A stretch of DNA of 64,000 nt. Origin: Eledone cirrhosa (Eukaryota). The DNA lies in the NCBI GenBank assembly GCA_964016885.1, contig OZ024742.1:9176001-9240000 (forward strand). The letters are read 5' to 3'. Below are positions 10,221-53,650 of the stretch, piece after piece. The position numbers and the translations under genes are program-made. The notes under the pieces were generated by a model that saw nothing but the letters and a program-made list of their open reading frames with translations, ran no database searches and had not been told where the DNA came from. The stretch's first letter is position 1, and the number at the start of each line of letters is the position of its first letter.

Positions 10221-10758
<538 letters not shown>

Positions 10759-27660: not shown

Positions 27661-27775
27661 GGTTCAAACTCCGCCAAAGTTAACTTTGCCTTTCATCCTT
27701 ACGGAGTCGATAAAATAAAGTACCAGTAATACACTGGTTAATTGCTGGCCTTGTGCTAAAAGTAGAAACAATTAT
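27661..27775 (+). mobile_element. 5'-truncated tRNA-derived SINE
   Basis: Matches 24395-24510. Confidence 0.8.
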
Positions 27776-27824
27776 ATATATATATATATCGCTCTCATAT
27801 ATATCCATATTTATTTGAGCGTGC

Positions 27825-29339: not shown

Positions 29340-29393
<54 letters not shown>

Positions 29394-29469
29394 CAGATTA
29401 AAGTTTAAGCAAAGAATCGCTGCTTTCACCCTTAACGGGATCTTCTGAAACTATTATTATTATTATTAT

Positions 29470-29700
29470 TGTACTTTGAGTCTCAGTCATTGATGTTAGT
29501 TAACTGGAAAGTTTGTTGAAATGAATATCAAGCCACTACCTGCAGCCTCAGATATTCAGGACGTATCGGAGGGTTCTTGCTGTTCCCAGCAAGCATGCCT
29601 TTTGAAGTGTTCAAAATAGCGGGGCGGGACCAATTTTCTTTAACCTAGTGCGCCTATGACAATCGGGACCACTTGACGTCATGGCAGTTCCAAATCCTTT
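29470..29700 (-). mobile_element. R4/Dong-like element 3' fragment (copy 0), internally deleted
   Basis: Matches 35552-35810. (ATT)n on both sides. Confidence 0.85.
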
Positions 29701-29936
29701 ATTATTATTATTATTATTATTGGCGACCTACTTAGTAAATCGTATCATCGTGAGTTTCGCAAAGGTTTGTTATTTTCAATTGTTTAAAATTGCCATTTAT
29801 GGAAAAATTTTATTGTTAACTGTATATAAGTGCTCATACATTGATTTCTGAAAAGGACACTCAAAAATATTGGGGCCTTGAGCCCGAAATTTAAACTTTT
29901 TATAATTATCAAACAAATATTTTTCTTTGAAAAATC

Positions 29937-31810
29937 ATGGCTGACTCAGAGTCACAATCTAACACCTCACACCGACACCACCATTGTAAATATTGCTACG
30001 TTTGCCAACTGGAAATGTAAGCAGTAGCAATATTTTAAATTTGTCTCAGGCAGACGTTCATTTCCCGCCATTACCAATGACTGCAGGTGTTAAAGCCGCC
30101 ACCCCCACCACCACCACAGCTACAACAGAAACAAAAGAAAGAAATAAATTAACTCGTGATATCGAAATGAATTCAACCAAAATGAACTCTTCCACACCGA
30201 ACACCACTGACACCACCAACACCACAACTGAAACTAAAATTAACAATAACAAAAATAACGATAACAACAACAGCAACAATGAAATTAAGAAAACTACTCT
30301 GAGTTTTGCCAGAGTAGCAAAAACGTGCGAAGCGATCCAGGTAACCCAGGAGGAATTAGAAGAAGCCAAATGAATGGTAAAGAAAGATGGGTACAGGATC
30401 AGCCCCCCCCCCCCCCCCACACCTAATAAAAGGGAGCATCGTCGCCTATGCACCGTGTCTTATCGGACAATTAATATAAAATCGCGCCGAGTGGAACGGG
30501 CATCCGAGTCCCAAATCCAAAAAGCTTTGGGACATGCGTGGGCAAAAAAAACCCATATCAGACGTGGGCAGAAATATGGAACCGTGGACGTGTTCTTTGA
30601 AACACCACAGGAGGCCAGAGAACACTCCATGGCCCCATTAAGAAGTGACGACTTCACACTCGTCCCAAGCTATTGTGGCCAGAGACTTGTAAAGATCAGG
30701 GTGACCCACGTACCACCGGCCATCGAAATTCCGTGGCTAATGGGTGCCGTCCTCGCCGGCATCGAGGCCAACACCAAGATAATCGAAATAGCGAAAGAAA
30801 AGCAGGAGAACTGGCCGGATATGGGATGGAGCTCTTGATCCAAGCGGATCATAAAAGCATTGAGGAGATCCCAGAGGTAATAGACCTCACTGACGGCAGC
30901 CATCTCACTGTAATCGTCGAGGGCAGAAGGCCTAGGTGTGTCGTTTGTGGTGAAGGAACCCACCTAAGGGCTTTCTGCCCTCAGGCTAAAAGGTTGAGGC
31001 CACCTCTCTTACCCACCCCAGTGACTCAACCATCAACACCACCAGCAGCAGAAATGGCAGCAACAACTGTACCAGCAACAACAGAAGCAACTGTAATAGC
31101 AACAACCCCAGCAACAGTAGCAAAACCAACACCACCACCACCCAACGCGCCTGAACTAGCACCAGCGCCTACACAATCCACCACGCCACAACCAAAACTA
31201 ACGCCTGTGGAGGATTTTCCACTCCCCGGCTTATCGCAACTAGAGACAGATTGTGACGACGTGGAGTGGGAAACGGTATCAGGAAAAAAGAAAAAAAGAA
31301 ACCAAAAAAGAAAAAATTCTCTTCCTTCCCCCTCCAAAAACAAAATACAGAGGGAAACAAATAAATTATCAAACAAAAAAGTTAGGACAGATATGCCACC
31401 ATCCACACCAGCATCACCAACCCCATCACCACAAACACCAACACCATCCCCATCATTAACCCCAACACCACCATCACCAACACCACAAAAGTCACCAAAA
31501 AGCGTAACAGAAACAAACACACAACAAACGCAAACAAAACAACCAAAACGATACACACTACACAGCGTGCAACACAACACAAGCATCACAGAAAAAGACT
31601 ACACAACAACCCCAAAGTTCACACCACCTCCACACATACAAATCACACGGATCACACAGAAAACGTACACGACACTAAAACAAAAAATTCCACAAAGACA
31701 TCGGAGACTTCCGACAAGCACTCTCCAGGAGGATTTATAAGGACATCCTTCCGGAGGAGGCCACAGCAGTGAAAAGGATGGACAAACCATCCTTCCTCTA
31801 CGAGAAGTAA
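29937..31810 (+). pseudogene. Tx1-like ORF1 (gag-like, CCHC zinc knuckle, Pro/Thr-rich)
   Basis: CVVCGEGTHLRAFC. Homologous to 47789-49117. Contains stops and frameshifts. Confidence 0.75.
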
Positions 31811-31849
31811 GGTAAGTGGTCTTTCCCATCTTTCCCACTCCTTTTAAAC

Positions 31850-34800
31850 ATGACCTCACTCAGAATATGCAGCATAAATGCGCGTGGCTTGGGGTCGTCA
31901 TGGAAGCAGGGTCACCTGATCAACGACCTCAGGTCACTAAACATAGATGTAGTGGCCATCAGCGAGACCAGAATCTCCGAAGCACGGGCCTTCGCACCGA
32001 TCTTCGGCGGCTACGATGTGTACGCATCTCCCAGCCCTCCGGGATCGGGGAGAGGAGTTCCTGTGCTTTTTCGGAGAGGTTTGAATCTCGCCATACGGGC
32101 CATCTTCCTGGACCCAGAAGGTAAGTTGGTTGTGCTAGACGTGACCAGCGGAGACGGGCAATCTTTCAGGCTAGGGGCCGTCTATGCCCCGACAGGAGCA
32201 GGGCGGCCTGATTTCTTCCGGCGTCTGGAGACGTTTCTTGGAACTTCCCGCTCTTTAGTGTTAGTGGGCGACTGGAACAGGATCTTAGATGCACGCTGGG
32301 ACTGTGTGGGATTAGCGCATAGGGGAGGAGGGTGCAAGAGCCTCACCCACCTGCTCAGGCGTTTTGAACTGTCTGACAGGTACTGATTGGATTTGCCGAA
32401 TTTTCCAATGTGGACTTGGACAAATCGCATAGGGTCATCCAGATCATATCTAGATAGAGTATTTTGTAGAGAAATAGATAGGTCTAGTATAGGCTGTCCA
32501 CAATTCAAGATAGTCAGCTACACGGACCACAAATTCGTGATCTGTGTGCTTGACTTAAATAGGCTTCATAGACGAGGAATCGGCTACTGGAAGCTAAACG
32601 CGTCCTTATCAGCGCGCAAGGCCTACAGAAAACGGATTAGCGAACTAGTTAAGCGGGCGTTGACGGGGGCCATCGTCAAAAACAAGTGGTGGTTTGTTCT
32701 GAAAAGAGCAATTAGAATAGAGTCCATTAGGTTTAGTAAGGCTTTAGCAATAGAGAAAAATAGAGCAGAGGGAGAATTAGTTAGAAAATTAGACGAGGCG
32801 CTTAGCAAAGGCATCGCGACCGACGTACTTGCGGCGAAATTGGGCCTTGACCAATTCTTCAATGCAAAGCACAAATGCTGCGTTGTGAAAGCTAGGGTGC
32901 GTGCTCTCAGACACGAGGGGACGAAAGCCGTTCAATGGGCCCGAGTGGCGGAGGCGCGTCGTGGCAACAAAGCCACGATCCAGTCTTTGGTGGACCACGA
33001 CGGGCGCATGCTACTCGATCCCGGGCAAATGTGTGAATCTTTTCAGCGACACTTCGCTCTGCTATTCAGGGGCAGCGGCGGGCCGGATCGAGTGATGAAC
33101 TTTAGTGTCTACCTCGACTGACTGCCGCGGCTCTCGGCCACTGGGGCGTAATGTTGCGAAAAGCCGATAACAGCCGCTGAAGTACGGGAGGCAATGACTA
33201 GCTGCACAAGGGATAAATCGCCTGGTTTGGATGGTCTGCCCTATGAACTTTACGTACAGATGCCAGACTTGTTCGGAGGCCTCTTGGCGGACGTGTACTG
33301 CAACTGGCAACAGAACGGGAGAATTCCCAGCTCTGTGAGCCGAGGAGCTGTGGCGCTGCTGAGAAAGGATCCGAACAAGGGGGATAACATAGATAATGTT
33401 AGGCCCATAACTCTGCTAAACACAGAGTTCAAGATTTTGGCCAAGGTGCTAGCAAAGAGGTTGGCGCTTGTCGTTGGTGGTCTGGTGGGAGAGGCGCAGA
33501 CATGCGCCATTCCCGACAGATCCATCCACGACAACCTCCACCTCATGTGATACATCGTAGAGAGAATAGCTAGGGGACCTGGCACGAGTGGGTCCTTGAT
33601 CAATTTAGATCAGTCGAAAGCTTTCGATAGGGTCGACCATCGTTACCTAGCGGCAGTCCTGAGGGCGGCTGGCTTTGGACCCGTCTTCAGAGGCTGGATC
33701 GCTGCCATGCACAGCGACATCTGCTCTGTGGTGAGAGTGAACGGTCACCTTTCGGAACCGTTCAACATCATGCGCTCGGTCCGCCAAGGATGTCCCCTCT
33801 CGTCCCTCTCGTACGTATTGACTCTCGAGCCATTACTGCACAAACTGAAGACGTTGAGGGGGGTCCCGTGCGAACTAGGATGCGGAAGATCCGTGTCAAC
33901 ATATGCGGACGATGTCACCGTAGTGGAATCGAACGCCAAACACATCGAAGCGATCGGCACTACACTAAGAGAATACGAAGCGGTGACAGGAGCAATGATC
34001 AACCAGGAAAAGTCAGTGGGCCTGCAGCTCGGCACCTGGAGAGGCAGGTCCATGCCGTCCAACAGCGTCGTGGGGCGCTGGACGGACGGACCGATTAAAT
34101 TGCTCGAGGTCTGGTTCGGTCCGGATCTCCAGACGGACAAAAACTGGGACGAGGTGAGGAGCAGGGTGGCTTCTCTCACACAGAACTGGGCCGAAAGGAA
34201 GCTATACCTGAAAGGTCGAGCGGAGGTGGCTAACGCGTATATCGCGTCCGTCATCTGCTACCGCCTGACCGTCGTACCTTGTCCTAAGCCCCGCCTGACT
34301 GAGCTGGAGCGTTTGCTCTTTCGCTTTTTGTGGAAGAGACGCGCTCCGATGGTCAGGCGGTCCATCTGTTGTCAACACCCGCTACGTGAGGGCTGGGAAT
34401 GCCGTGGCTGTTGATGCGCAGACACGCGCTCAGGCTGCGACATCTCCACCTCTTCCTCGACGGTGATCAGGTGTGGTCGCCGTTTGCTAGACGTGTCTTT
34501 CCCCAGCTAGTCTCCTTGACGGAGCTGCAGTTCTGGGTCAAGCGAAGACCGAGAGGCAGCGCTTGGAGACTGGAATGTCTTCAGGCGCTCACAGCCCTCG
34601 ACCAATCGGGCAATGTGATAGGTGGAAACTCCGCCTTGGCGTTCTATAGAGGATTAGTGGAGGGGAAGAGCGACGACGTACTTGTGGAAACTCTAGGCGT
34701 CGACGAAAATCAACTAGCCAATCTCTTCGGAAGAACTTTCGGGTCGGGGCCTATGGACAACTTCCAGAAATCCCTGGCCTTGCAGTGCTACCGAGGAGCC

Positions 34801-35269
34801 TTTGCCAGTTCGGGATAAACTCTACAGGCATGGAGGTGCCGTCAGCCGCGCATGTCCGAGATGCGTGCAGGGCAACGAAACCGTCCTGCACGCACTCGTC
34901 CAGTGTCCGAAAATTGCTGACTTGTGGGTTCATGTCGAACACCTGCTGTCGCGTGTAGAACGGATCCGGCTATCATCTGAGTCCATCGTGAGAATTGCCC
35001 CGCCCTCTTCCTTTAGCCGGGAAGGGCAGGCAGTTTTTATCTGTCTGGTGGCCATGGCGAAAGAGATAGTATGGTGGACACGTTTGAAAGGGCTGAAGAC
35101 GAGCACTTACCTCTTCGGTGATGCCCTGATTGACTTTTTCAAATTTCATTTGAAAAGGAAAATCAGAGTAGAGAGGGAAGTGCTCTCTTCCCAGCATTTT
35201 GTTAAAAGATGGGTGAGAGAAGCAAGAATGGCCCGAGTGAATGGGCCTACTCTGAGTACGTATCTGTAA
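31850..35269 (+). pseudogene. Tx1-like ORF2 (APE endonuclease, RT, zinc finger)
   Basis: SINARGL, SETR, VYAP, GDWN, SYLDR, TDH, YWKLN, KSPGLDG, RPITLLN, LDQSKAFDRV, VRQGCPLS, YADD, CPRC...ETVLHALVQC. Multiple stops and frameshifts. Confidence 0.92.
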
Positions 35270-35628
35270 ATTAAAGGTGGAAAACTGGGAGAGGGCACTT
35301 GCCTTGGTGGTCAGGGTCACTGTGGCCTTTTACTGGGCTTTCTCCACAAATGTCCCTCCGAAGTCTCCCCCTATTGGGGAATTTTTCATTGTTATTTTTT
35401 GTTACATCCTCTGTTTTTGTTTTTTACACGCAGAAATGCCCATTTGTACCGTCCTGTATTGTCCTGCACTGTCCTTAATGCCTACTTTATGTAAACCCTT
35501 GTGGTTAATAAAGAAATCATTATTATTATTATTATTATTATTGTTATTGTTATTCCTTGAATCTCAGTCATTGATGTTGGTTAACTGGAAAGTCCGTTGG
35601 ATTGAATATCAAGCCACTACCTGCAGCC

Positions 35629-38600
35629 TCAGATATTCAGGACGTATCGGAGGGTTCTTGCCGTTCCAAGCAAGCATGCCTTTTGAAGCGTTCCAAAAAG
35701 CGTGAAGGGGCCGATTTTCTTTAACCATCCCTGGAAACCTTTGGAGATAGTCCCCAGTGCGCCTATAACAATCGGGATCACTTTGACTTCATGGCAGTTC
35801 CAAATCCTTTTCACCTCCCACTTTAGGTCCTGGTATCGGTTAATTTTCTCCCTCTCCTTCTCTTGCACTCTCGTGTCGAACGGGCAGGCCACATCCACAA
35901 TCAGGCACGATCTTTTTTCTTTGTCCACAACCACCAGGTCAGGTCTATTGTGCTCCAGTTTTTTGTCCGTCTGTATCCTAAAATCCCACAGCACCTTCAC
36001 CTGACTGTTCTCCATCACCGCCTCTGGCCTATGCTCATACCATTTCTCAGAATGTGGTAGATTGTTTACTTTGCACAGGTGCCAGTGGATCACCCTGCCC
36101 ATCACATCGTGTCTCCAGCCCTTATAGTGGGTCTGGGCTAGGTGTTTACACTCGGACACAATGTGAGCCACAGTCTCCTCTCTCTCTCCACAGATCCTGC
36201 ACAGTGGGCTAGCCTCCTCCTTGTAGATATGGTGCTTCAACCACTTCGTTTTGAGGGCCTGCTCCTGCGCAGCCATTAGCATTCCTTCTGTAGCCTTTTT
36301 GAGGTCTCCTCTTCTCAACCAGTTCCATGTCTGTGGATCTCTAAATTCAGTTTTCTCAAAGAAGGTACTATGAAGGGATTTTCCCTTAAGGCTGCTCTTC
36401 CTCCTTGATGTTATTTCCTCCTTGGGTATCCCCTGGCCTACTGTCCCCTCCTTCAGTACAGCTCTGAGCATTGGCTCCTTACTATAGGTCACGTATTTGT
36501 ATAGGTTGTTTTTCTCCATCTGAACACAGTCCTCTATGCTGATAAGACCTCTTCCACCCTCAGATCTCCTTAGGTAGAGTCTATCGACATCACTCCTCTT
36601 GTGGAACATGTTGTAGATAGTCAATAGCTTCCTAGTCTTCCTATCCATTTCTTTTTGTTCAGCAACATTCCATCTCAGAATTCCCGCACTGTACCTAATA
36701 ATAGACACAGCTCGGGAATTTACTGCGCTTATGGCATTTCTGCTGTTCAGATGTGACTTCAATACGCTCCTTACTCTCCGAATGTATTCAGTTCTTAACA
36801 ATTCCTTCATTTTTTTGTTCTTTATGCCATCAGCCTCCAGAACGCCCAAATACTTGTATCCTTCCTCAGAGTCAATTTCCTTTATCATCTCACCTGTTGG
36901 TATCTGGATCCCGTTACTTCTGCTCAACCTACCCCTCCTCATCACAATGACTCCACATTTACCAATACCAAACTGCATACATATATCACTGCTGAAAATA
37001 CGGACAGTGTCAACAAGCACATCCAACTCCTTCTCACTTTTCCCGAAGAGCTTAAGATCGTCCATGAAGAGGAGGTGATTGATGGTAAGCTCTCCCCTTC
37101 CCAACTTGTATCCTGCTCTCACTTTTCGCAGCATAATGGTCAAGGGCATCAGGGCAAGGACAAACAACAGAGGGGACAGGCTATCTCCCTGGAAGATACC
37201 TCTCTTGATCTTCACGCTTCCCAAGGATACTCCAGTTGATGTCAACTCTGTCTCCCAGGACCCCATACTCCTGCCCAGCAACTGTCTGATGTTATCTGCC
37301 ACCCTGAAGATCTCCAGGCTTTTGGTGATCCAGGAATGAGGCACCATGTCAAATGCCTTTCTGTAGTCTATCCATCCCATGGCAAGATCAGTGTGTCTCC
37401 TCCTGCAATTCCCCATTACCATCTTATCAATAAGCAACTGGTCCTTTGTACCACGTGACTTCTTTCGGCATCCTTTCTGTTCGTCCGGCAACAAGTTGTT
37501 TGTGTGGAGGTGATGGTAGATTTCCTCAGACACAATGCTCGTCAACAGTTTCCACATTACGGGCAGACATGTGATAGGTCTATAGTTGGTAACATCATTA
37601 CCCTTGATTCGGTCTTTCATTATCAGAACTGTGGTACCTTTTGTCAACCACTCTGGCACCTCACCCGACACCAAGCAGTCATTGAACATGGCCGTCAGCT
37701 TCGGGTGGAGGGATGTTAAATGTTTAATCCAATACCCCTGCACACCATCTGGGCCTGGTGATTTCCAGTTGGTTAGTTTTTTGGCTTGCCCCTTAAGAGT
37801 TTCAACTGTGATACTCAAATCAGTCTGTTGCTGTGCCTGCTCACCGATCTCCCTCTGTACTGTCTCAATCCACCCTGCCTGGGCATTGTGTCTAACATCC
37901 TGCTCCCATATTCTTCTCCATAATGTTTTAGCTTGTTCCGCCCCAGGGATCAAGTCGTTGCCTCTTTCTTTCCCCTCAAGCTGTCCAAACAGCATCTTCT
38001 GGTTGTTGTCGAACATGCGGTTCTGTTTATACTGACTGACTCTGTTCTCGTATCGCCTGATTTTGGCACTCTTTGCTACAATGCGTTGCTTCAATTCCTC
38101 TATGATAATATTTAGCTTTTTACTCCTAGTTTTGTATTTTATTTCCAGTCTATTTTTAGTGCCTATGTTTTTTAGTGTCCCATTCAGTAGTGACTCAAGC
38201 TTTCCTATGTCATTTCTCATTTCCCCGATTTGCCCACTCAGTCGCTTCTTCCACCACGGCTCTGCTCTTTCTTGTCTGTTGTTTCCTCTCGCTTTTATAC
38301 CAAGTAGTTTCCTCACCGTATTTGCTGTTGCTTTGAGGATATTGTTGCACTGGTGAAGACTCCTCGCCTCAAGGTATGGGATGACTTTGTTTACCTTAGC
38401 TGTTGTTTCTTTTAACTTTTTCCTGTCTACAAATCTTAGGTTCATAGGTCTCCCACTATCATTGTTCAACTCATCTACCACTAAATTTAGGATGTCAACC
38501 GAATCTTGTCCTAGCCCGTCAGCATTCATCTCCTCAGTGGCCGTTTCTCTGTTCCAGGTATTATTTATCTCAGTATTCAGATCATTGTCTGCTTCGGGTG

Positions 38601-39021
38601 GTTCCTCCGTTCTCAGGACCTCCTCACCTTCATTTCCCGCCGGCTCGCTTGTCTGGCATACTACACCCGCCATCTCCAAGCCATTCTCTCTGCTCAGTTC
38701 CTCCAGTTCCAGCTCGCCTATCCACCCATTAGTTCTTATTACCCGAGCCTGCCCGGCCAATTTTTGTTCATCTAATTTAAATAAACCAATCTCGTTCCAG
38801 ATGTTATGCATCCGTCTCCTGTAGCCCCTCTCCTTGGGGTTACTTTTCAGGTAGCATTGCATAACAGTTCTATTCAATTCTTTCGTCCAGTTGGTTCTGG
38901 CCCCTTTCCTTCTTCTTCTTCCTCCAACATCAGCAGTATTTGGTTGACAGTCAGGTTCCTGCTGCTGAGCCAGGGGGCACCTGTTGGGTGAGAGTCTGTC
39001 ACATGACGTTCTAGTCTCCAT
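35629..39021 (-). CDS. Intact 1130-aa RT plus CCHC plus restriction-like endonuclease protein (R4/Dong clade)
   Basis: N-terminal Myb/SANT-like WTKELN..MQCY; KSPGPDG, YRPITCL, IDYRKAFD, GIFQGDSLSP, LFMDD, YKYLG, GGRGL, CRICGEREETVAHIVSEC, RHD, RPDLVVVD...DVACP...KINRY. No stops. Confidence 0.93.
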   Translation of the reverse strand: METRTSCDRLSPNRCPLAQQQEPDCQPNTADVGGRRRRKGARTNWTKELNRTVMQCYLKSNPKERGYRRRMHNIWNEIGLFKLDEQKLAGQARVIRTNGWIGELELEELSRENGLEMAGVVCQTSEPAGNEGEEVLRTEEPPEADNDLNTEINNTWNRETATEEMNADGLGQDSVDILNLVVDELNNDSGRPMNLRFVDRKKLKETTAKVNKVIPYLEARSLHQCNNILKATANTVRKLLGIKARGNNRQERAEPWWKKRLSGQIGEMRNDIGKLESLLNGTLKNIGTKNRLEIKYKTRSKKLNIIIEELKQRIVAKSAKIRRYENRVSQYKQNRMFDNNQKMLFGQLEGKERGNDLIPGAEQAKTLWRRIWEQDVRHNAQAGWIETVQREIGEQAQQQTDLSITVETLKGQAKKLTNWKSPGPDGVQGYWIKHLTSLHPKLTAMFNDCLVSGEVPEWLTKGTTVLIMKDRIKGNDVTNYRPITCLPVMWKLLTSIVSEEIYHHLHTNNLLPDEQKGCRKKSRGTKDQLLIDKMVMGNCRRRHTDLAMGWIDYRKAFDMVPHSWITKSLEIFRVADNIRQLLGRSMGSWETELTSTGVSLGSVKIKRGIFQGDSLSPLLFVLALMPLTIMLRKVRAGYKLGRGELTINHLLFMDDLKLFGKSEKELDVLVDTVRIFSSDICMQFGIGKCGVIVMRRGRLSRSNGIQIPTGEMIKEIDSEEGYKYLGVLEADGIKNKKMKELLRTEYIRRVRSVLKSHLNSRNAISAVNSRAVSIIRYSAGILRWNVAEQKEMDRKTRKLLTIYNMFHKRSDVDRLYLRRSEGGRGLISIEDCVQMEKNNLYKYVTYSKEPMLRAVLKEGTVGQGIPKEEITSRRKSSLKGKSLHSTFFEKTEFRDPQTWNWLRRGDLKKATEGMLMAAQEQALKTKWLKHHIYKEEASPLCRICGEREETVAHIVSECKHLAQTHYKGWRHDVMGRVIHWHLCKVNNLPHSEKWYEHRPEAVMENSQVKVLWDFRIQTDKKLEHNRPDLVVVDKEKRSCLIVDVACPFDTRVQEKEREKINRYQDLKWEVKRIWNCHEVKVIPIVIGALGTISKGFQGWLKKIGPFTLFGTLQKACLLGTARTLRYVLNI

Positions 39022-39590
39022 TTCACCGTTATTCGAACTGTTTATGTTCGATATTTAAACACTCTTATCGAGGATTGGCGAATGTATGTTTACATAGCCA
39101 TCTGTGGATCCGCCATCCCACTTGGCCCTTGTGTGGCATTATCACCACGCTGTATACGGACACACATAAACAAACAAACACACGGGCAGAAAGGGCCCCA
39201 AAAATGAATAAGCATAAGTTTCATTGTAATGTAGTATTCGAATGTCTGACTTAGTTTTTGTTTTTTAAGTTTTACTTTTTCCCCCCTCTTCTCTGTCCGT
39301 CCGCCTGCTTCTCTCTTCATTCTTATTTTCTTTACGTTTTGGGGGTTTCTTTTTTTGTTTTTGTTTTTCTCTGTTTTTCTCGTTTTTTACTGTTGTTGCT
39401 GTGCTGCTTTTGTTGTTTGTTTTTTCTTTTTTCTTTTGAGTCTATCTATACATTTTGATGCCTTCCTCTTTGTTAGTAGTAGGAATTCTATAATGTGGAA
39501 GTGGTAGCCAGCAGAGACTGGCGGCGTTGGCGATACTGAGACAGTGGTGGTGGTGATGTCGACACCGAGGCAGTGGTGGCGGTGATGCGA

Positions 39591-40234
39591 CCGTATTACT
39601 GTAGTGATGGTGCTGTAGCGGTGGCAGCAGCAGTGAAGGAGTCAGGGGGTGGTGGCGGCGGTGATGGGATAGTGGTGGTAATGATGGCCGTAGTGAGCGG
39701 TGGCGGTGAAGGTGAAAATGCTGTTGTGTTTAGTGTACACAGATGATGGGGTGGGTGGTGTATCTAGTTTCTGGTGTTGGTGAGTTTCGCTGTCCTATAT
39801 AGTGTAGCCAGAGGAGAGGAGGGGGGGGTTCTTCTTCTTCCATTTATAGCCATTTTATTTTTTTTTGGATATACAGTGTACAATACAAAGTTGAATATTT
39901 GAATATTTGAGCCGTATTACTGTAGTGATGGTGCTGTAGCGGTGGCAGCAGCAGTGAAGGAGTCAAGGGGTGGTGGTGGCGGTGATGGGATAGTGGTGGT
40001 AATGATGGCCGTAGTGAGCGGTGGCGGTGAAGGTGAAAATGCTGTTGTGTTCAGTGTACACAGATGATGGGGTGGGTGGTGTATCTAGTTTCTGGTGTTG
40101 GTGAGTTTAGCTGTCCTATATAGTGTAGCCAGAGGAGAGGAGGGGGGGGGGGGGGTTCTTCTTCTTCCATTTATAGCCATTTTTTTTTGGATATACAGTG
40201 TACAATACAAAGTTGAATATTTGAATATTTGAGC
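39591..40234. repeat. ~322-bp tandem duplication in the 5' region of Dong copy 1
   Basis: CCGTATTACTGTAGTGATGG starts at 39591 and 39913. The units differ mainly in homopolymer lengths. Confidence 0.9.
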
Positions 40235-40417
40235 CTTATAACAATATATTTTGGGTCCGAATTTTTTGGGGGCTCAAGCCGGGTACTTTACGTAGCATTT
40301 GTACTAAGAGTTGTTATTTCACAAATGATTTAAATATGTTAAAAATTCAAAACTTACGGGAGCGATTTCATGACCTCCGTCACCTCGTGCGTCTTCTTCC
40401 CATTATTATTATTATTA

Positions 40418-42695: not shown

Positions 42696-42697
<2 letters not shown>
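40418..42697 (-). mobile_element. 5'-truncated R4/Dong-like copy 2, nearly identical to copy 1
   Basis: The 729-aa open frame differs from copy 1 at two residues that I could see. Flanked by (ATT)n. Confidence 0.92.
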
Positions 42698-42771
<74 letters not shown>

Positions 42772-45700
42772 GTGTTGTTCTTTGAGTCTCAGTCATTGGT
42801 GTTATTTAACTGGAAAGTTTGTTGAAATCAATATCAAGCCACTACCTGCAGCCTCAGATATTCAGGACGTATCGGAGGGTTCTTGCTGTTCCAGCAAACA
42901 TGCCTTTTGAAGTGTTCCAAAAAGCGGGGCGGGACCAATTTTCTTTAACCATCCCTGGAAACTCTTTGAGATAGTACCTAGTGCGCCTATGACAATCGGT
43001 TTCACTTTGACTTCATGGCAGTTCCAAATCCTTTTTACCTCCCAATTTAAGTCCTGGTATCGGTTAATTTTCTCCATCTCCTTCTCTTGCACTCTTATGT
43101 CAAATGATCAGGCTACATCCACAATCAGGCACCATCTTTTTTCCTTGTCCAAAACCACCAGGTCAGGTCTATTGTGTTCCAGTTTCTTGTCCGTCTGTAT
43201 CCTAAAATCCCACAGCACCTTCACTTGATCGTTTTCTATCACCTACTCTGGCTTATGCCCATACCACTTCTCAGAATGTGGTAAATTGTTTACTTTGCAT
43301 AGGTGCCAGTGGATCACCCTGCCCATCACATCATGTCTCCAGCCTTTATAGTGAGTCTGGGCTAGGTGTTTACACTCGGATACAATGTGAGCCACAGTCT
43401 CCTCTCTCTCTCCACAGATCCTACACAGTGGGCTAGCCTCCTCCTTGTAAATATGGTGTTTCAGCCACTTCGTTTCGAGGGCCTGCTCTTGCACAGCCAT
43501 TAGCATTCCTTCTGTAGCCTTTTTAAGGTCTCCTCTTTTCAACCAGTTCCATGTCTGTGGATATCTGAATTCAGTTTTCTCAAAGAAGGTACTATGAAGG
43601 AATTTTTCATGAAGGTTGCTCTTTCTCCTTGTTGTTATTTCCTCCTTGGACACCCCCTGGTCTATTGTCCTCTCCTTCAGTACAATGCTGAGCATTGGCT
43701 CCCTACTATCAGTCACGTATTTGTGTAGGTTGTTTTTCTCTATCTGAACACAGTCCTCTACGCTGATAAGACCTCTTCCACCTTCAGATCTCCTTAAGTA
43801 GAGCCTATCGATATCACTCCCCTTGTGGAACATGTTGTAGATAGTCAATAGCTTCCTAGTCTTCCTATCCATTTCTTTTTGTTCAGCAACATTCCATCTC
43901 AGAATTCCCGCACTGTACCTAATAATTGTTTCTACTTTAGGCACAAGGCCAGCAATTACCCAGTGCATTACTGGTACTTTATTTTATCGACCCCGTAAGG
44001 TTGAAGGCAAAGTCAACCTCGGCGGGATTTGAACTCAGATCGTAAAGGAACGTAACTATGCTGGATTCCCGCACTGTACCTAATAATAGACACAGTTCGG
44101 GAATTTACTGCACTTATGGCATTCCTACTGTTCAGATGTGACTTTAATACGCTCCTTACTCTCCGAATGTATTCAGATCTTATCAATTCCTTCATTTTTG
44201 TGTTCTTGATGTCATCAGCCTCCAGAACACCTAAATATTTGTATCTTTCTTCAGTGTCAATTTCCTTTATCATCTCACCTGTTGGTACATGGATTCCATT
44301 GCTTCTGCTCAATTTACCCCTCCTCATCACAAGGACACCACACTTACTAATACCAAATTGCATACATATATCATTGCTGAAAATACGGACAGTGTCAACA
44401 AGCACATCCAACTCCTTCTCACTTTTCCCGAAGAGCTTAAGATCGTCCATGAAGAGGAGTTGATTGATGGTAAGCTCTCCTTTTCCCAACTTGTATCCTG
44501 CTCTCACTTTTCGCAGTATAATGGTCAGGGGAATCAGGGCAAGGACAAACAACAGAGGGGACAGACTATCTCCCTGGAAGATACCTCTCTTGATCTTCAC
44601 TCCTCCCAAGGATTCTCCAGCTGATGTTAACTCTGTTTTCCAGGACTTCATACTTTTGCTCAACAACTGTCTGATGTTATCTGCCACCTTGAAGATCTCT
44701 AGGCTTTTGGTGATCCAAGAATGTGGCACCATGTCAAATGCCTTTTTGTAGTCTATCCATCCCATGGCAAGACCAGTGTGTCTCCTCTTGCAATTCCTCA
44801 TTACCATCTTATCAATAAGTAACTGGTCATTTGTACCACGGGACTTCTTTCGGCATCCTTTCTGTTCGTCCGGTAACAAGTTGTTTATGTGGAGGTGATG
44901 GTAGATTTCCTCAGACACAATGCTTGTTAACAGTTTCCACATTACGGACAGACATGTGATAGGTCTATAGTTGGTAACATCATTACCCTTGATTCGGTCT
45001 TTCATTACCAGAACTGTGGTACCTTTTGTCAACCACTCTGGTACCTCACCTGACAACAAGCAATCATTGAACATGGTTGTCAGTTTCGGGTGGAGGGATA
45101 TTATATTTTTAATCCAATACCCCTGCACACCATCTGGGCCTGGTGATTTCCAGTTGGTTAGATATTTGGCCTGCCCCTTAAGAGTTTCAACTGTGATACT
45201 CAAATCAGTTTGTTGGTGTGCCTGTTCACTAATCTCCTTTTGTACTGCCTCAATCCACACTGCCTGGTCATTATGTTTAACATCCTGCTCCCATATTCCT
45301 CTCCATAATGTCTTAGTTTGTTCCGCCTCAGGGATCAAGTCGTTGCCTCTTTCTTTCCCTTCAAGCAGCCCAAACAACATCTTCTGGTTGTTGTCAAACA
45401 TGCGGTTCTGTCTATACTGACTGACTCTGCTCTCGTATCGCCTAATTTTTGCACTCTTTGCTACAATGCGTTGCTTCAGTTCCTCCATGATAATATTTAG
45501 CTTTTTCCTCCTAGTTTTGTACTTTATTTCCAGTCTATTTTTAGTGTCTATGCTTTTTAGTGTCCCATTCAGTAGGGACTCAAGCTTTCCAATGTCATTT
45601 CTCATTTCCCTGATTTGACCATTCAGTCGTTTCTTCCACCAAGGTTCTGATCTTTCTTGTTTGTTGTTTCCTCTCGCTTTTATGCCAAGTAACTTCCTCA

Positions 45701-46900
45701 CCGCATTTGCTGTTGATTTGAGGATATTGTTGCACAGGTGAAGGCTCTTCACCTCAAGGTATGGGATGACTTTGTTTACCTTAGCTGTTGTTTCTTTTAA
45801 CTTTTTCCTGTCTACAAATCCTAAGTTCATAGGTTTCCCACTATCATTGTTCATTTCATCTACCACTAAGTTTAGGATATCAACCAAATCTTGTGTTAGC
45901 CCGTCAGCATTCATTTCCTCAATGGCCGTATCTTTGTTCCAGGTATTATTTATTTCAGGATTCAGATCATTGTCTGCTTCGGATGGTTCCTCCGTTCTCT
46001 CAACCTCTTTACCTTCATTTCGCACTGGCTCGTTTGCCTGGCATACTCCACTCTCCATTTCCAACCCAATCTCTCTGTTCAGTTCCTCCAGTTCCAGCTC
46101 GCTTATCCACCCATTAGTTCTTCTTACCCGAGCCTGCCCAGCCAATTTTTGTTCATCTAATTTGAATAGACCAATCTCGTTCAAGATGTTATGCATCCGT
46201 TTCCTATAGGCTTTCTCCTTGGGGTTACTCTTCAGGTAACATTGCATAACAGTTCTATTCAATTCTTTCGTCCAGTTGGTTCTGGTCCCTTTCCTTCTTC
46301 TTCTTCCTCCAACACCAGCAGTATTTGGATGACAGCCAGGTCCCTGCTGCGGAGACAGGGAGCACCTGCTGGGTGAGAGTCTGTCACATGACATTCCAGT
46401 CTCCACTTCACCGTTATTCGAACTGTTTAGGTTCGACATTTAAGCACTCATATCGAGGATTGGTGAATGTATGGTTACATAACTACCGGTGATTTCATCA
46501 CCCCCGGTGATTTTAGCGTGGCACCATCACGCTGTAGACAAACATAAATAAACAAACAAATAGATAAAAACCTAAAAAAAATAAAAAAACGAACACAAGT
46601 TTCATTGTAATGTTTGAATGTCTCACTTAGTTTTTTCTCTTTTTTTTTCTTTTTTTGTTTGTTTTTCTCTTTTGCGTTTTTCGTTTTACAAGGCCAGTAA
46701 CATCGGTTACTAGTGTTGTTGTTGCTGCTGCTGCTAAGGGAAGTAGGGGTTGTTGTGTTCAAAACTTTTGAAACCCGTGTCCGTTGTTGCGTTTGCTTCT
46801 GTCTCTGTTCTGTTCTATAATTTTTCGACTATAATTTTTTATATAATTTTTTTCCCCTTCATCCCTACGTTGCCGACACCACAAGGCACCTGCAACACAC
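42772..46900 (-). mobile_element. R4/Dong-like copy 3 (diverged subfamily), disrupted by a SINE, a stop and a frameshift; the 5' region may extend to ~47340
   Basis: ORF pieces 44013-46439, 43243-43968 and 42862-43092 are homologous to copy 1. Confidence 0.9.
43927..44064 (-). mobile_element. 5'-truncated SINE inserted in Dong copy 3, with a 23-bp TSD
   Basis: ATTCCCGCACTGTACCTAATAAT at 43904-43926 and 44065-44087. Confidence 0.92.
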
Positions 46901-46904
46901 CGGG

Positions 46905-46950
46905 ACAATTGCTGGCCCCGTGCCAAAAGCAGAAGCAATTATTATTATTA
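46905..46950 (+). mobile_element. 3'-terminal SINE fragment with an ATT tail
   Basis: AATTGCTGGCCCCGTGCCAAAAGCAGAAGCAATTATT resembles the SINE 3' end. Confidence 0.6.
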
Positions 46951-47361
46951 TATTATAGTTTAGAATTGATATCGTTTAAACTAAACATTTTGAGAGAGTT
47001 TAGAGATACAACATAATTATTTTGGTGTTGTTGTTGTTAGCTGCTTGGCCGAGTCACTAACCCAGTCTATTTATATCTGTTGATACCCACAACGCTTCTT
47101 TTCATGTGTAGCGGTACCACCACCCCTCTCTTAAGTAGTGAGGGAATAGTGGCGGTAGCGATGATGCAGTGGCGACGGTGGTGATGGGGCAGCAGTACTA
47201 TAGGGATGGTGCTGGTTTGTATTTGGCTAGATTTTTTGTGGTAGTGGTGATGGTGATGGTGGCGGCGGCGGCGGCGGTGGTGGTGCTGGTGGTGAAGTTA
47301 TTTGGCTGTTGTTTTCTAGTAATTTTCTTTTCTGACTATAAAAACAATTATTATTATTATA

Positions 47362-50300
47362 TTATAGTTAAGATTCGACATCGTTTAAACTAAACATTAT
47401 TAAAATTAACAAATATTTCTAACACAAACAACACCAACAATAACACCAACAACAACACCAACAACAACACCATCAATAACAACAGCAACAACAAAAATAA
47501 CAGCGGAAAAGTCGAGAACGACAATAACAAAAATAAAAACGGTAAGGTCGAGAACGACAATAACAATGACAATAACAATAGCCACAACAACAACAATAAG
47601 AGTAGGAACAGTATCAACGAAAACAACACCAACAACACCAACAACTGTACCAACGAAAACATCATCAATGACATCGATACCTGCAATAGCGACCTCAGCA
47701 CCACCAGTAAGACCAGTAGCGGCAGCAATAGTGGTGCTGCTGAAAAAGGGACCACTTCTTTTGAGGTGTCGCCCGAAATATTGAGACAGTGTTAGTCACA
47801 GAGGAGGAGATGGCAGTCGTAAGGGCCATGGTGACAAGAAGCGCCAATAGAGTCTCCCTGAAACCTCTACCTGATTTTTTCAAGGACCAGCAGCTACGGA
47901 CGGTGACTTACCGCACCGTAAGCAAAATCTCACATCGGGTGGAGAGAGCCACGGAGGCTCAAATCCCAAAAGCCTTGGGGTGCGTCTGGGAACGCAAAAC
48001 CCACATCACCCGAGGCAGAAAGTACGCCACAGTAGACGTACAATTCGCTATCCCCCAGGAAGCAAAGTCTCACTCTTTGGAAACCCTAAAGAGTGAGGAG
48101 ATAGTCTTGGTGCCCTCCTACTGCGGGCAGAAAATTGTGAGGGTCAAAGTGACCCAGGTCCCACCCGACGTGCCCATACCTTGGCTGGCCGCATCTGATC
48201 TTGTGGGATTCGAGAACAGTACGACCATGCTGCGAGTAGAAAAAATAGGGAGAGAGAACTGGTCAGGTATAGGCATGCAAATGCTTATACAAACTGACCA
48301 GGAATGTATCGAGGCTATCCCCGATATCATAGACATCGAGGAAGGACTCCAGCTTCCTATAAGTGTAGAAGGAAGACGGCCAAAATGTTATCTCTGTGGG
48401 TCGAAGGGTTACCTCAGGGCCTTTTGTCCGCAGAAGACAGCGAAGAAGAAGGCCCCTCTCCGTCCAATACCTGGTCTGCTGCTACCAAGAACAGGGCAGG
48501 CAACAAACGTAGAAGCCCCTTCCACGGTCAGTAGGTGGGCAACGTCCGTAGCACCCGTACCAAGGCCATGGATAACTAAAGCAGCATCATCAGTAGCGGC
48601 AACACCAATAGCTACATTTGAAGTAGCTACACCAGCAACAAAATTCCCGAAGAGGGCTCCACTGCCACCACCAACAGCCGTGGAGCACATACCCCTCCCA
48701 GACGCCACAGAATCCGACCTGGAGTTTGAGGCGAGAGTGAAATGGCAAACGGTCTGCCACACAAAAAAAAAAAAACCCTTAGATTCACCCTCCAAAAGCG
48801 AAGGCATACAAAGAGGGGTAAAGGCAGCAAGGAAACTTGCAGCAACACCACCACCATCACCACCACAAGCACCACTGACAACAACAACCACACCACCACC
48901 AGCATCACCAAAAACACCAACAACGCAAACACAACAAGACACACACACCAAACAGCAACAACAAGAAAACAGCAACAAAATCACCCCTCCCCCCAAAAAG
49001 TACACAGCCATAAACATGACAAAGAAAGAACTCATACAATATATAAAGCAGCACACAGACATCACAGAAAAAACTACTACACCCCACCAACACCATGAAC
49101 TCTCCCAACAAACATAAGCATCATTGAAATCTCAATAGAACAGTACAAACCTTTAAAACAAAAATTTCCCAACGCAGTTGGAGACTTCAGACGATCGGTT
49201 ACCAAGAGGATATACACTGACATCTTCTTGGGAACACTCATGACCAGCAAAAGGGACGGTTCTACTGTCCCTTCACCACACGATCAAGGTAAGTGACCCT
49301 TTCTCACTTGCCCTATTTCTCATCCAAAATGGCCGTACTCAGAATAGACAGTATAAATGCACGTGGCCTGGGGTCATCTTGGAAGCAGAGCCACCTACTC
49401 AACGACCTCAGATCACTAAACATAGATGTGGTGGCCATCAGTGAGACCAGAATCTCCGAAGCACGGGCCTTCGCACCGATCTTCAGCGGCTACGATGTAT
49501 ACGCATCTCCCAGCCGTCCAGGATCGGGGGGAAGAGTTGTCGTCCGTTTTCGGAGAGGCTTGGATCTCGCCATACGGGCCATCTTCCTAGCCCCAGAAGG
49601 TCAATCGGTGGTGTTGGACTCACTGGCATCGAAGGCAATGCTTTCAGTCTAGTAGCCGTCTACGCCCCAACAGAGGCAGGACGGCCAGATTTCTTCAGGC
49701 GTCTAGAGACCTTTCTTGGAACGTCCCGCTCTTTAGTGTTAGTGGGCGACTGGAACGGTATCTTTGATGCACGCTGGGATTGTGTGGGGCTAGCGGATAG
49801 GGGAGGAAGGTGCAAGAGCCTCACCAACCAATTCAGAAGTTTTGAACTGTCTGACAGGTATCGACTGGATCACCCGAATGTGCCAATGTGGACATGGACA
49901 AACAGCATCGGGTCATCCAGATCGTATCTCGATAGGATATTCTGCTGAGAACTAGATAAGGCTAGTATAAGTTGTCCACAATTTAAAATAGTCGACTACA
50001 CAGACCACAAATTTGTGATCTGTGAGATCGACATAGACAGACTTCATAGACAAGGGCCTGTTTACTGGCAGCTGAACGCGTCTTTTCCGGCGCGCAAAGC
50101 CTACAGAGACCGGATTAGCGTATTAGTTAAGCGGGCGTTGACGGGAACGGTCGTCAGGTCGTCAACAACAGGTGGTGGTTCACCCTGAAAAGGGCAATTA
50201 AAGTAGAGTCGATTAGGTTTAGCAAAGGAGTAGTGATAGAGGAAAATAGAGTAGAGGGAGAGCTAGTCAGAAAGCTAGAAGAGGCGTTTAGGACAGGCAT

Positions 50301-53042
50301 CGCAACCGACGTGCTCGCGGCGAGATTGGCACTCGCCAATTCTTCAACGCAAAACACGGAGGCTGCGTTGTCAGAGCTAGAGCGCGTGCTCTGAAACACG
50401 AGGGGACAAAAGTCGTCCAATGGGCCCGGGTGGCAGAGGCGCGACGTGGCAATAAAGCCACAATTCGGTCTTTGTCTGACCAAAACGGGTGCGTGATGCT
50501 CGAACCCGAGCGGATGTGTGAAGCTTTTCAGCAGCACTTTGCTGAACTGTTCGGGAGCAGCGGCGGCTCGGATCGGGGCATGGACTTCAGTGCATGCCTC
50601 GACGGACTGCCTGGGCTCTCAACGACCGCAGCACATTGTTCCGAAAAGCCAATATCAGCCGGTGAAATACAGGAAGCGATGCCTAACTGCACAAGGGGTA
50701 AATCGCAAGGTTTCGGTGGTCTGCCCTACGAGCTTTATGCATTTATGACAGACTTATTCGGTGACCTCTTGGCAGACAACTACTGCAACTTGCAGCAGAA
50801 CGGGAGCATTCCCAGTCTTGTGAGCCGGGGAGCAGTGGCGCTGCTGAGAAAAGAACCGAACAAGGGGGATGTTATCGATAATTTCAGACCCATAACACTG
50901 CTAAGCGCAGAGTTCAAGATTTTGGCCAAGGTGTTAGCAACGAGGTTGGCGCTTGTCGTCAAGGGTCTGGTGGGAGAGGCGCAGACATGCGCCATTCCGG
51001 ACAGATCCATACACAACCTCCACCTCATGCGATACATCATAGAGAGGGTGGTTAAGGAACCTGGCACGGATGAGGCCCTGATCAACTTGGATCAATTCAA
51101 AGCATTCGATAGGGTCGACTATCGGTACCTGGCGGCGGTCCTCGAGGCAGCCGGTTTCGGGTCCGTTTTCAGGGGTTGGATCGCAGCAATGTACAGCGAC
51201 ATCTGCTCAGTTGTGAGGATGAACGGTCAACTGTCGCAGCCGTTCAGCATCATGCGTTCAGTCCGCCAGAGTTGTTCCCTCTCGTCCCTCTAGTACGTAT
51301 TGGCTCTCAAGCCGTTACAGCACAAACTGAGGGCGATGAGGGGCGTCCCACGCGAACTAGGATGCGGGAAATCCGAGTCGGCTTACGCTGACGACGTCAC
51401 CGTGGTGGTGTCGAGCACCAGACACGTCCAGATGCTCGGCACCGCTCTCAAGGAATACGAAGCGGTGACAGGAGCAAAGATAGACCAGGAAAAGTCGGTG
51501 GGTTGCAGCTCGGCACCTGGAGGGGCAAGTCCATGCCGCCCGACAGCGTCGTGGGGCGTTGGACGGACGAACTGGTTAAATTGCTCGGGGTCTGGTTCGG
51601 ACCGCACCTCCAGATGGAGAAAAACTGGAACGAGGTGACGAGCAGGGTGGCCTCTCTCACCCAGAAATGGGCCGAGAAGAAGCTGTCCCTGAAAGGTCGG
51701 GCGGAAGTGGCGAATGCGTACATCGCATCCGTCATCTGCTACCTCCTCACCGTCGTCCCTTGCTCCTGCCCAATTCTCACCAAAATGGAGCGCCTCCTTT
51801 TCCGCTTTTTGTGGAAGGGACGCGCTCCCATAGTCAGACGATCCATCTGCTGTCAACACCCGTTGCGTGGAGGACTGGGCATGCCATGGCTGATGATGCG
51901 CAAACATGCGCTGAGGCTGCGACATCTCTGGTGCTTCCTTGACGGTGAACAGGTGTGGTCGCAGTTCGCCTGGCACGTTTTCCCACAGCTCGTCTCTTTG
52001 ACGGAGCTGCAGTCCTGGGTCAGAAAAAGACCGAGGGATAGCGCTTGGAAACTGGAATGTCTCCAGGCGCTCACTGCCCTCTGCTAGCTGGGCAACAGTA
52101 TCGGTGGAACATCCACCTCGTCGTTCTATAGAGGACTAGTGGATGGGAAGAGCGACGACATTCTCGGAGAGATCCTTGGCGTCGAAGAAGATCAGCTGTT
52201 TGCTCTCTTCCGGAGAACTTTCAGCCCAGGGCCTATGGATAACTTCCAAAAATCCCTGGCCTGGCAGTGCTACCGGGGAGCGATGCCGGTTCGAGATAAG
52301 CTCTACAGGCACGGAAGTGCCGTCAGCCGAGCATGTCCAAGATGCGCGCAGAGCGACGAAACCGTTGTGCACGCACGCGTTCAGTGTCCGAGCATTGCTG
52401 ACTTGTGGAGCTATGTTGAACAGTTGCTGTCGCGTATAGGATTGATCCGGTTATCGACTGAGTCCATTGTGCAGATGGTCTCGCTGTCTTCCTTCGAGTA
52501 GGAAGGGCAGGAGGTTTTCATATGCCTGGTGACCATAGCGAAAGAGATTGTGTGGTGGACAAATTTAAAAGGGTTAAAGACAGACACATTCCTCTTCGGC
52601 GATTCCCTAATTAACTTTTTCAAGTTTCACTTGAAGAGGAAAATCAGGGTGGAGAGGCAAGTGGTGCCTTCTAGCAAGTTTGTTGAAAGGTGGGTGAATG
52701 TAGCGAGAATGGTCCGAGTGAACGGGACCGCTCTGAATATACGTCTGTAGTTTGAGAGATGGAAAAATTGAGAGCGGCCGCTTTCCCTGGTGGTCAGGCT
52801 GGCCGTGGTCTTTTGTGTGGTTTTCGGCACGAGTAACCCTCGGAGGTTTCCCCCCTATTAGGGAATATTTCATTGTTTCAATTTTCATTTTTATTGTTTA
52901 TATATATATGTTTCTATGTTCTTTTTTGTCTTTTCTTATATAAATAATAAAAATATTTACACGCACAAAACCCACTTCGTACCGTCCTGTGCCGTCTGTG
53001 ATGTTTTTCTTGATGTCAGCCCTTGTGGCCAATAAAGAAATC
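47362..53042 (+). mobile_element. Tx1/L1-clade element (copy B, diverged subfamily), degenerate
   Basis: Asn-rich start; ORF1 (CYLCGSKGYLRAFC); ORF2 at 49329-52750 homologous to copy A. Ends CCCTTGTGGCCAATAAAGAAATC followed by (ATT)n. The 5' boundary is approximate. Confidence 0.88.
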
Positions 53043-53084
53043 ATTATTACTATTATAATAATTATTATTATTATTATTATTATT

Positions 53085-53594
53085 CTTTGAGTCTCAGTCA
53101 TTGATGTTAGTTAACTGGAAAGTTTGTTGAGATGAATATCAAGCCACTACCTGCAGCCTCAGATATTCAGGACGTATCGGCGGGTTCTTGCTGTTCACAG
53201 CAAGCATGCCTTTTGAAGCGTTCCAAAAAGCGTGAAGGGGCCAATTTTCTTTAACCATCCCTGGAAACTTTTTGAGATAGTCCCTAGTGCGCCTATGACA
53301 ATCGGGATCACTTTGACTTCATGGCAGTTCCAAATCCTTTTTACCTCCCACTTTAAGTCCTGGTATCGGTTAATTTTCTCCCTCTCCTTCTCTTGCACTC
53401 TCGTGTCGAATGGACAGGCCACATCCACAATCAGGCACGATCTTTTTTCTTTGTCCAAAACCACCAGGTCAGGTCTATTGTGTTCCAGTTTCTTGTCCGT
53501 CTGTATCCTAAAATCCCACAGTACCTTCACCTGATCGTTTTCTATCACCTCCTCTGGCTCATGCTCATACCACTTCTCAGAATGTGGTAAATTG

Positions 53595-53597
<3 letters not shown>
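53085..53597 (-). mobile_element. R4/Dong-like 3' fragment (copy 4)
   Basis: RLE-coding C-terminus. (ATT)n on both sides. Confidence 0.9.

Positions 53598-53650
<53 letters not shown>

Follow-up and report, generated by a model that had tools for sequence, protein, structure and literature searches.

Dong-like and Tx1-like retrotransposons of opposite polarity share an ATT-rich array in the genome of Eledone cirrhosa

How can retrotransposons that use different types of endonuclease come to be stacked end to end at one simple repeat, each family in its own orientation? The question is raised by a 64,000-nucleotide stretch of the Eledone cirrhosa genome (GenBank assembly GCA_964016885.1, contig OZ024742.1, forward-strand positions 9,176,001 to 9,240,000), referred to here at its full length as the window and numbered from its first letter. 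Positions 29453–53645 hold a 24.2-kb array of five Dong-like copies with a restriction-like endonuclease (RLE), all on the minus strand, and two Tx1-like copies with an apurinic/apyrimidinic-type endonuclease (APE), both on the plus strand, with ATT tracts between them. This end-to-end arrangement had been described in an initial annotation of the DNA, and coordinates and domains confirm it. Our preferred explanation, to which we assign a probability of roughly one half, is that the opposite polarity arises because the Tx1-like endonuclease would act at a short ATTAT(T) motif by nicking its AAT strand and the Dong endonuclease would nick the ATT strand of that repeat, each insertion leaving a usable tract on both sides.

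Results

Layout of the array

The Dong-like copies (D1–D5) and Tx1-like copies (T1 and T2) follow one another as (ATT)6, D1(−), (ATT)7, T1(+), (ATT)8, D2(−), (ATT)6, D3(−), (ATT)25 and D4(−), and then, after a complex zone with two (ATT)4 tracts, T2(+), an ATT tract, D5(−) and (ATT)16. The left edge is formed by (ATT)6 at 29453–29470, which is the 3' flank or the tail of D1, and the right edge by (ATT)16 at 53598–53645, the 5' flank of D5. The (ATT)7 tract at 29701–29721 lies between the 5' ends of D1 and T1 and cannot be the 3' tail of either. Between the 5' end of D2 and the 3' end of D3 lies (ATT)6 (40402–40419), and between the 5' end of D3 and the 3' end of D4 lies (ATT)25 (42696–42770). 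As the initial annotation had noted, T1 and T2 each stand tail to tail with a Dong copy across a single tract: T1 and D2 across (ATT)8 at 35519–35542, and T2 and D5 across a tract at 53043–53084 (starts at 53043 and 53061) that is degenerate at the T2 side and a perfect (ATT)8 at the D5 side.

The presence of ATT at every junction, as first claimed, holds for these tracts. The tracts starting at 46938 and 47347 do not mark a clean D4/T2 junction. They lie in an ambiguous boundary zone (46933–47398), one (ATT)4 in each copy of a 57-bp duplication (46933–46989 and 47342–47398), and the first of them follows a 3' fragment of a short interspersed element (SINE). The two copies are 91% identical and enclose a segment of ~350 bp; this stretch could be part of the 5' untranslated region (UTR) of D4 or of the start of T2. 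A further ~45 bp are weakly common to both sides of the SINE.

Tracts of at least four units number nine within the array, every one reading ATT on the plus strand, and five in the other 39.8 kb of the window, every one reading AAT on that strand; four of these five fall within the two halves of a 1.3-kb duplication. The strict polarity asserted at first is not confirmed for the Tx1-like family, which offers two copies, with one clear 5' junction (T1) and one plausible one (T2), and a relic. The relic corrects the statement that neither family occurs elsewhere in the window: this third Tx1-like sequence, 220 bp long, lies outside the array at 10822–11041 on the minus strand, with 70–72% nucleotide identity to T1/T2 and a tblastn E value of 4e-11. 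Read in its own sense, it begins directly after an (ATT)3 at the 3' end of a SINE.

The two retrotransposon families

The full-length copy D2 (35543–40401) contains an intact 1141-aa frame at 35629–39054 with reverse transcriptase (RT), CCHC and RLE domains. This is a single open reading frame (ORF) without APE; it features FMDD at 663, a C-terminal CCHC at 952 and an RPD..D motif at 1037, and the closest solved structures to its protein are R2 proteins. The 5'-truncated D3 (40420–42695) differs from D2 at four positions in 2276 bp (99.8% alike). D4 (42771 to ~46850) is near full-length, 90–93% identical to D2/D3 and interrupted by a SINE, and its 5' UTR may extend to 47346. The remaining copies are 5'-truncated: D5 (53085–53597, 513 bp) is 94% identical to D2–D4, and D1 (29471–29700, 230 bp) has an internal deletion of ~28 bp, is 81–84% identical to the other copies with this gap included, and matches residues 1111–1141 of protein P0001 in tblastn. 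On the sense strand, a TAA repeat adjoins all five 3' ends and all four clear 5' ends. The R4/Dong label holds to group level: no named R4 reference was found among the 120 matches listed, and the RT tree was built without named R4/Dong references.

The 5' region of D2 is long, at ~1.3 kb. At 39591–40242 it carries a tandem duplication of ~320–330-bp units (95% identity) that resembles a promoter monomer array. No hepatitis delta virus (HDV)-like ribozyme was detected at Dong-like 5' regions, either as an Rfam match or as a core motif, in two scans that are both weak for diverged ribozymes; across the window, Rfam returned only microsatellite-driven microRNA matches and sub-threshold noise.

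T1 (29722–35518) is a full-length but decayed long interspersed element (LINE) of the L1 group, with a 5' UTR, a CCHC knuckle in its ORF1, and ORF2 beginning at 31850. T2 (~47359–53042) is likewise decayed, 80% identical to T1 across ORF2, and its 5' end is uncertain. Both ORF2s have APE, RT and zf-RVT zinc-finger domains and are broken by several stops and frameshifts. The ORF1 knuckle reads CX2CX4HX4C in T1 and has Y in place of H in T2. At the 3' end, T1 carries a hairpin (35494–35506) with AATAAA after it and T2 a hairpin at 53019–53029, and both elements run into ATT. A CCHC knuckle in ORF1 and the lack of a poly(A) tail are features of the Tx1 clade. A profile of the Tx1-like ORF2 matches L1 ORF2p with an E value of 1e-100 versus 1e-34 for R2, and L1 ORF2p is also the closest among solved structures; the closest named match to the T1 ORF2 is an Argonauta hians protein (55%). 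As with Dong, the Tx1 label holds to group level, the quick RT tree containing no named Tx1 references and leaving deep branches unresolved.

ATT tracts as likely targets

All four clear Dong 5' junctions (D1, D2, D3 and D5) adjoin AAT in element sense, the three truncated ones with a microhomology of only 0–2 bases, and the tract that flanks the 5' ends of D1 and D5 is no other element's 3' tail. Because these four junctions and the 5' end of T1 adjoin ATT, the tracts are not only tails.

The 5' end of T1 was placed with reads from four of 14 available runs, mapped to the parts of 29388–39580 outside the ATT junction tracts. In run X5, the first bin of T1 (29728–30067) has a summed contig depth of 109,006 versus 8–18 for the single contigs listed, and variants occur in this bin from 29803 onward. 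Given this multicopy depth and these variants, the 5' UTR of T1 is element sequence that starts at, or within ~80 bp of, the (ATT)7 tract. In the same run, depth across Dong is 871,000 close to the 3' end and drops to 132,000 where the ORF begins, and depth across the Tx1-like ORF2 is 570,000–830,000 throughout; these values are sums, not copy numbers. Both families are very abundant in the reads. The large loose ends at 32853 and 35845 in run X12 are library artefacts, as they fall at AATT sites and the starts in that run at GCATGC sites.

T1 plus D2 and T2 plus D5 align as one 4.5-kb block, with 80% identity across the Tx1 part versus 93.5% across the Dong part. As these identities are unequal, the tail-to-tail junction arose twice. 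The opposite polarity and the self-renewing site that the initial annotation had envisaged are supported by the four clear Dong 5' junctions, by the T1 5' end at or near (ATT)7, and by SINEs with the Tx1-like 3' hairpin that entered ATTAT in Tx1 polarity.

A SINE with the same polarity and a shared 3' hairpin

The window holds eight copies with a 3' end, and one weak internal fragment, of a SINE that we take to be tRNA-type from its B-box motif. A target duplication is visible in four of the eight copies, and in all four the duplicated sequence begins ATTAT at either end of the insertion, against a background frequency of 0.0024 per position. A full-length copy (24300–24519, plus strand) has a 16-bp duplication beginning ATTATT, a 5'-truncated copy (27642–27790, plus) one of ~18 bp beginning ATTAT, and a longer variant (24720–24955, minus) a short one of 7–9 bp beginning ATTAT. 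The fourth copy lies inside D4 (43904–44087, minus) and has a 23-bp duplication (43904–43926 = 44065–44087) that begins ATTATT in SINE sense. Its empty site, preserved in D2 and D3, has this ATTATT too, and the insertion contributed no tail. Seven of the eight SINE 3' ends are followed by ATT, and the polarity of insertion at ATTAT is that of T1 and T2. The sites are dispersed motifs of 5–6 bases outside microsatellites, one of them within a Dong ORF.

The 3' ends were compared by scoring the terminal 28 nt of seven SINE copies (the diverged copy at 46851 was excluded) against every 28-nt window of each LINE. Among the 5657 windows of T2, the terminal one ranks 1–2 for five of the seven copies and 5 and 32 for the remaining ones; comparison with Dong ends gives ranks of 64–1655. 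What the termini have in common is a small hairpin with the loop CTTGT, whose stem is AACC/GGTT in T1, GCC/GGC in T2 and GGC/GCC in most SINEs. Across 15 distinct ends, 88% of cells are paired and three of the four pairs are altered on both sides; the covariation score was equalled by none of 500 shuffles. Of the 170 CT[TC]GT loops in the window, 13 have a stem of at least three pairs, and seven of those 13 are SINE or Tx1-like termini. By these sequence comparisons, the SINE and the Tx1-like LINE appear to qualify as a stringent SINE/LINE pair, that is, one with a shared 3' terminus and a compensatory stem-loop, with a weaker case for T1. We infer that the Tx1-like ORF2 recognizes the shared hairpin and so mobilizes the SINE, in which case the SINE sites would report the preference of that enzyme. 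The Tx1-like machinery likely prefers the short ATTAT motif over long microsatellites.

Relatives of the Tx1-like elements

A sister Tx1-like lineage was found as animal-like DNA within one bacterial metagenome-assembled genome (MAG), which accounts for 36 of the 40 loci found. In a quick tree, the 19-row clade that holds T1, T2 and this lineage has a support of 100 in the Shimodaira–Hasegawa-like approximate likelihood ratio test. The sister lineage ends in the same hairpin, ahead of AATAAA. Its pure head-to-tail arrays contain neither (ATT)4 nor (AAT)4. The MAG in question, a GTDB genome labelled uncultured Arenicella sp. (loci L032–L066 and L069), contains contigs of head-to-tail Tx1-like LINE arrays with units of 6.4–6.8 kb, mostly intact, in several subfamilies and with short variable spacers; these arrays probably derive from an animal host whose DNA was binned with the MAG.

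A metagenome scan returned 31 distant loci (22–35% identity), none of which has an ATT or AAT tract of at least five units. Other simple repeats, namely (GA)n, (AGTA)n and (CAA)n, stand at the end or start of the distant relatives L002, L016 and L019. Two distant Tx1-like relatives carry U1 snRNA upstream of their ORFs (L001 at 47–210; L068 at 3036–3199, 9961–10137 and 18183–18346) and resemble U1-headed or U1-associated Tx1 families. Viral contigs yielded nothing in pattern or protein scans, the 3'-end pattern was not found in genome contigs, and a protein atlas search returned only unnamed RT clusters, to which cluster look-ups added no names.

Discussion

Proposed mechanism

Target-primed reverse transcription begins on the strand opposite an element's sense flank. 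Under the two-strand nicking that we favour, the Tx1-like ORF2 would prime from the AAT strand at ATTAT(T), and a target duplication of 16–23 bp within (ATT)n would copy 5–8 units, which matches the (ATT)6–8 seen at several junctions. Dong would prime from the ATT strand and add AAT tails. The duplications made by Tx1-like elements would renew the tract, Dong would then enter from the other strand, and after each insertion a tract on both sides could be used again. The decayed T1 and T2 are probably the earlier insertions, with the tracts filled later by younger Dong copies, since the T2/D5 tract is degenerate at T2 and perfect at D5. The copies also differ in decay: D2 is intact, and D2 and D3 differ at four of 2276 sites, versus several stops and frameshifts in T1 and T2. 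The SINE within D4 suggests that Tx1-like and Dong activities overlapped in time. A broader proposal is more tentative: that an octopod Tx1-like LINE, the hairpin-recognizing engine of an abundant tRNA-type SINE, nicks the AAT strand of ATTAT, and that its nuclease and that of Dong, which nicks the other strand, renew each other's targets and so build mixed arrays of opposite polarity genome-wide.

Several points weigh against these proposals. The flank evidence comes from this one window, and the nick positions are deduced from the standard target-primed model. Only one Tx1-like 5' junction is clear (T1), that of T2 being plausible, and the relic and its adjoining SINE may have inserted in either order. 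Among the SINE copies without a visible duplication, three have ATT at the 3' end and one does not. The hairpin stem is short (3–5 bp), the structure was named from these same sequences, and a control in which it was slid by +1 scored 0.217 versus 0.350. Against the 5770 windows of T1, the terminal window comes first for only two of the seven SINE ends and ranks 49–1283 for the other five. Finally, ATTAT follows none of 89 motif-selected 3' ends of the sister lineage (37 distinct; overlapping loci from one record), and the ATTAT preference as read from these sequences is therefore not lineage-wide.

Alternative explanations

The junctions that the initial annotation ascribed to two endonuclease types would look alike under RNA-tail microhomology priming, which needs no specific nuclease. 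In that scenario, the main rival, which we regard as unlikely on balance, the Tx1-like nuclease is not motif-specific; LINE and SINE RNAs ending in AUU prime only at nicks that expose an AAT end, which acts as a one-polarity filter for ATT, and the resulting tails seed Dong targets. Short 3' repeats do serve template slippage in other LINEs (TGTAA in UnaL2 and TAA in the I element; PMC3747384), and the seven SINE 3' ends that run into ATT fit such priming. It predicts junctions identical to those of two-strand nicking, so junction sequences cannot separate the two. What speaks against it is the SINE in D4, which added nothing beyond the existing ATTATT, together with the one SINE end that lacks ATT; in known microsatellite-specific Tx1 members, moreover, target choice is credited mainly to the endonuclease (PMC4494074). 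The annotation's convergence of an RLE and an APE family on one microsatellite is supported as regards the opposite polarity. It went further than needed in that microsatellite specialism is not required of the APE family: its likely SINE partner uses a motif of 5–6 bases. A true (ATT)n specialist like Kibi and Koshi that converged with Dong is doubtful: T1 is flanked by (ATT)7 and (ATT)8, T2 runs out into an ATT tract and possibly begins at (ATT)4, and both copies lie within the single ATT-rich array, but the likely SINE partner enters sites outside microsatellites, including one within the Dong ORF, the family is very abundant in the reads with an ORF2 depth similar to that of Dong, and the relic adjoins just three ATT units.

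Transposon-targeting Tx1 families exist (PMC4494074), and the two tail-to-tail meetings could suggest that Dong 3' tails are the specific target of the Tx1-like family, much as another transposon is that of Xenopus Tx1. We consider this very improbable: T1 shows more decay than D2 beside it, which is intact, the T2/D5 tract is perfect next to D5 and degenerate next to T2, and the SINE sites lie outside Dong tails. Equally little credence attaches to a block duplication of one Tx1–ATT–Dong unit or a misassembly of near-identical repeats. Such events would account for the single 4.5-kb block in which T1 plus D2 and T2 plus D5 align and for the near-identity of D2 and D3, and no record among the reads and contigs listed spans 29388–39580. 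The difference between the Tx1 and Dong parts of that block and the separate breakpoint of each truncated copy argue against duplication, and at position 35767 D3 has the read-majority base and D2 a private one.

Comparison with known systems

Each principle invoked here has a published precedent: Dong and TAA, microsatellite-specific Tx1 elements, the convergence of Keno and Utopia, and the orientation of TRAS and SART. Dong targets TAA repeats, including in the snail Biomphalaria (PMC3812793), and a silkworm Dong 5' junction has seven TAA units upstream in sense (PMC3774820). The Dong copies of the array resemble those of silkworm, mosquito and snail in their single ORF with RT, CCHC and RLE, in the TAA target and in the TAA upstream of the 5' junction. 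They differ in the ~1.3-kb 5' region of D2 with its tandem duplication. Silkworm Dong has an HDV-like ribozyme, of which the two scans here detected none. Tx1 families have been described at (TC)n, (TTC)n, (TTCC)n and (TTTC)n, with more than 20% of flanks as the criterion for microsatellite specificity (PMC4494074). Like T1 and T2, Kibi, Koshi and the crocodilian microsatellite Tx1 elements are APE-type with two ORFs and have a 3' end directly at a simple repeat; they target other repeats, whereas the family described here seems to prefer a short motif. No ATT-targeting Tx1 was found among the microsatellite families in the portions of PMC4494074 available, and its supplementary data may list more.

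An APE and an RLE family on one target are also known from Keno (Tx1) and Utopia, which evolved the same target in U2 snRNA genes in parallel (PMC4640811). Their identical 3' flanks imply the same polarity at an RNA gene, in contrast to the opposite polarity at a microsatellite seen here. TRAS and SART, like the families of the array, enter one tandem repeat in opposite orientations and form mixed arrays, in their case at the silkworm telomeric repeat (PMC10088271); both belong to the R1 clade, whereas the present site is interstitial and the endonucleases are of different types. Target renewal has a parallel in Drosophila tandems of transposable elements, in which the target duplication preserves the site and permits further insertions (PMC5932611), although such double insertions are described mainly for same-family dimers.

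Hairpin recognition within the L1 group is reported for one monocot lineage, with compensatory changes, and for a green alga (PMC3747384). The stringent pairs of the monocot L1 share a 3' hairpin with compensatory changes, as do the SINE and Tx1-like copies here. SINEU mirrors the target of Tx1-Mar, as the present SINE probably does that of the Tx1-like family; SINEU ends in poly(A) and no LINE with the SINEU-1 3' terminus was found (PMC4494074), whereas the SINE here shares the hairpin of the Tx1-like LINE. The available portions of PMC4758252, PMC4824008 and PMC8869645 name no Tx1 partner for an octopus SINE.

In Octopus vulgaris, where Dong-R4 is abundant, recent insertions include 1129 of Dong-R4 and 421 of L1-Tx1, and both were recently active (PMC13282606). 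The accessible parts of PMC13282606, PMC8967140 and PMC9115989 name no insertion target for either in octopus. LINEs make up 12.9% and SINEs 11.6% of that genome, in which repeat hotspots have been mapped but not explained (PMC13282606). What we have not found described is the combination of RLE and APE elements on opposite strands of an interstitial microsatellite, the likely ATT preference and the likely SINE link; RLE/APE convergence and opposite orientation are already published for the families above. An ATT-preferring Tx1, its SINE pairing and a mixed Dong/Tx1 array were not found in the literature searched; Kojima and Fujiwara 2004, Ohshima and Okada 1994, Repbase and Dfam lay beyond it and may hold part. 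If true, a shared, self-renewing ATT target would offer a testable mechanism for some repeat hotspots, name a partner for the octopus SINE and add a rare hairpin-recognizing member to the L1 group. It would also provide a natural pair of APE and RLE nucleases comparable on one short duplex. The RLE/APE combination and the SINE link merit genome-wide follow-up.

Other features of the window

Homology between the 5' UTRs of T1 and T2 was not significant (equalled or exceeded in 30 of 500 shuffles). A promoter shared by the 5' UTRs of T1 and D2 was considered, as none of 500 shuffles reached its score, and rejected when unrelated stretches of the window scored alike (62 versus up to 70). The SINE 3' fragment with (ATT)4 at 46851–46949 (plus strand) shows T>C-biased divergence: compared with five other copies, its positions 46851–46937 have T>C at 12 of 22 T versus A>G at two of 24 A (Fisher p 0.001), a bias absent from the other SINE copies. 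On the sense strand of D4, this T>C corresponds to A>G, as if the fragment derived from a reverse-transcribed, A-to-I-edited transcript, small as the numbers are.

A 540-bp (GAT)n tract lies beside the Tx1-like relic (10222–10759), with no element inserted in it. The 1.3-kb duplication is direct (3989–5328 and 8039–9381, 98.7% identity), and an inverted 250-bp copy of its start is present at 9380–9631. Long arrays of a 16-bp minisatellite, with up to 117 copies, occupy 14554–15392, 18493–20365 and 20675–20840.

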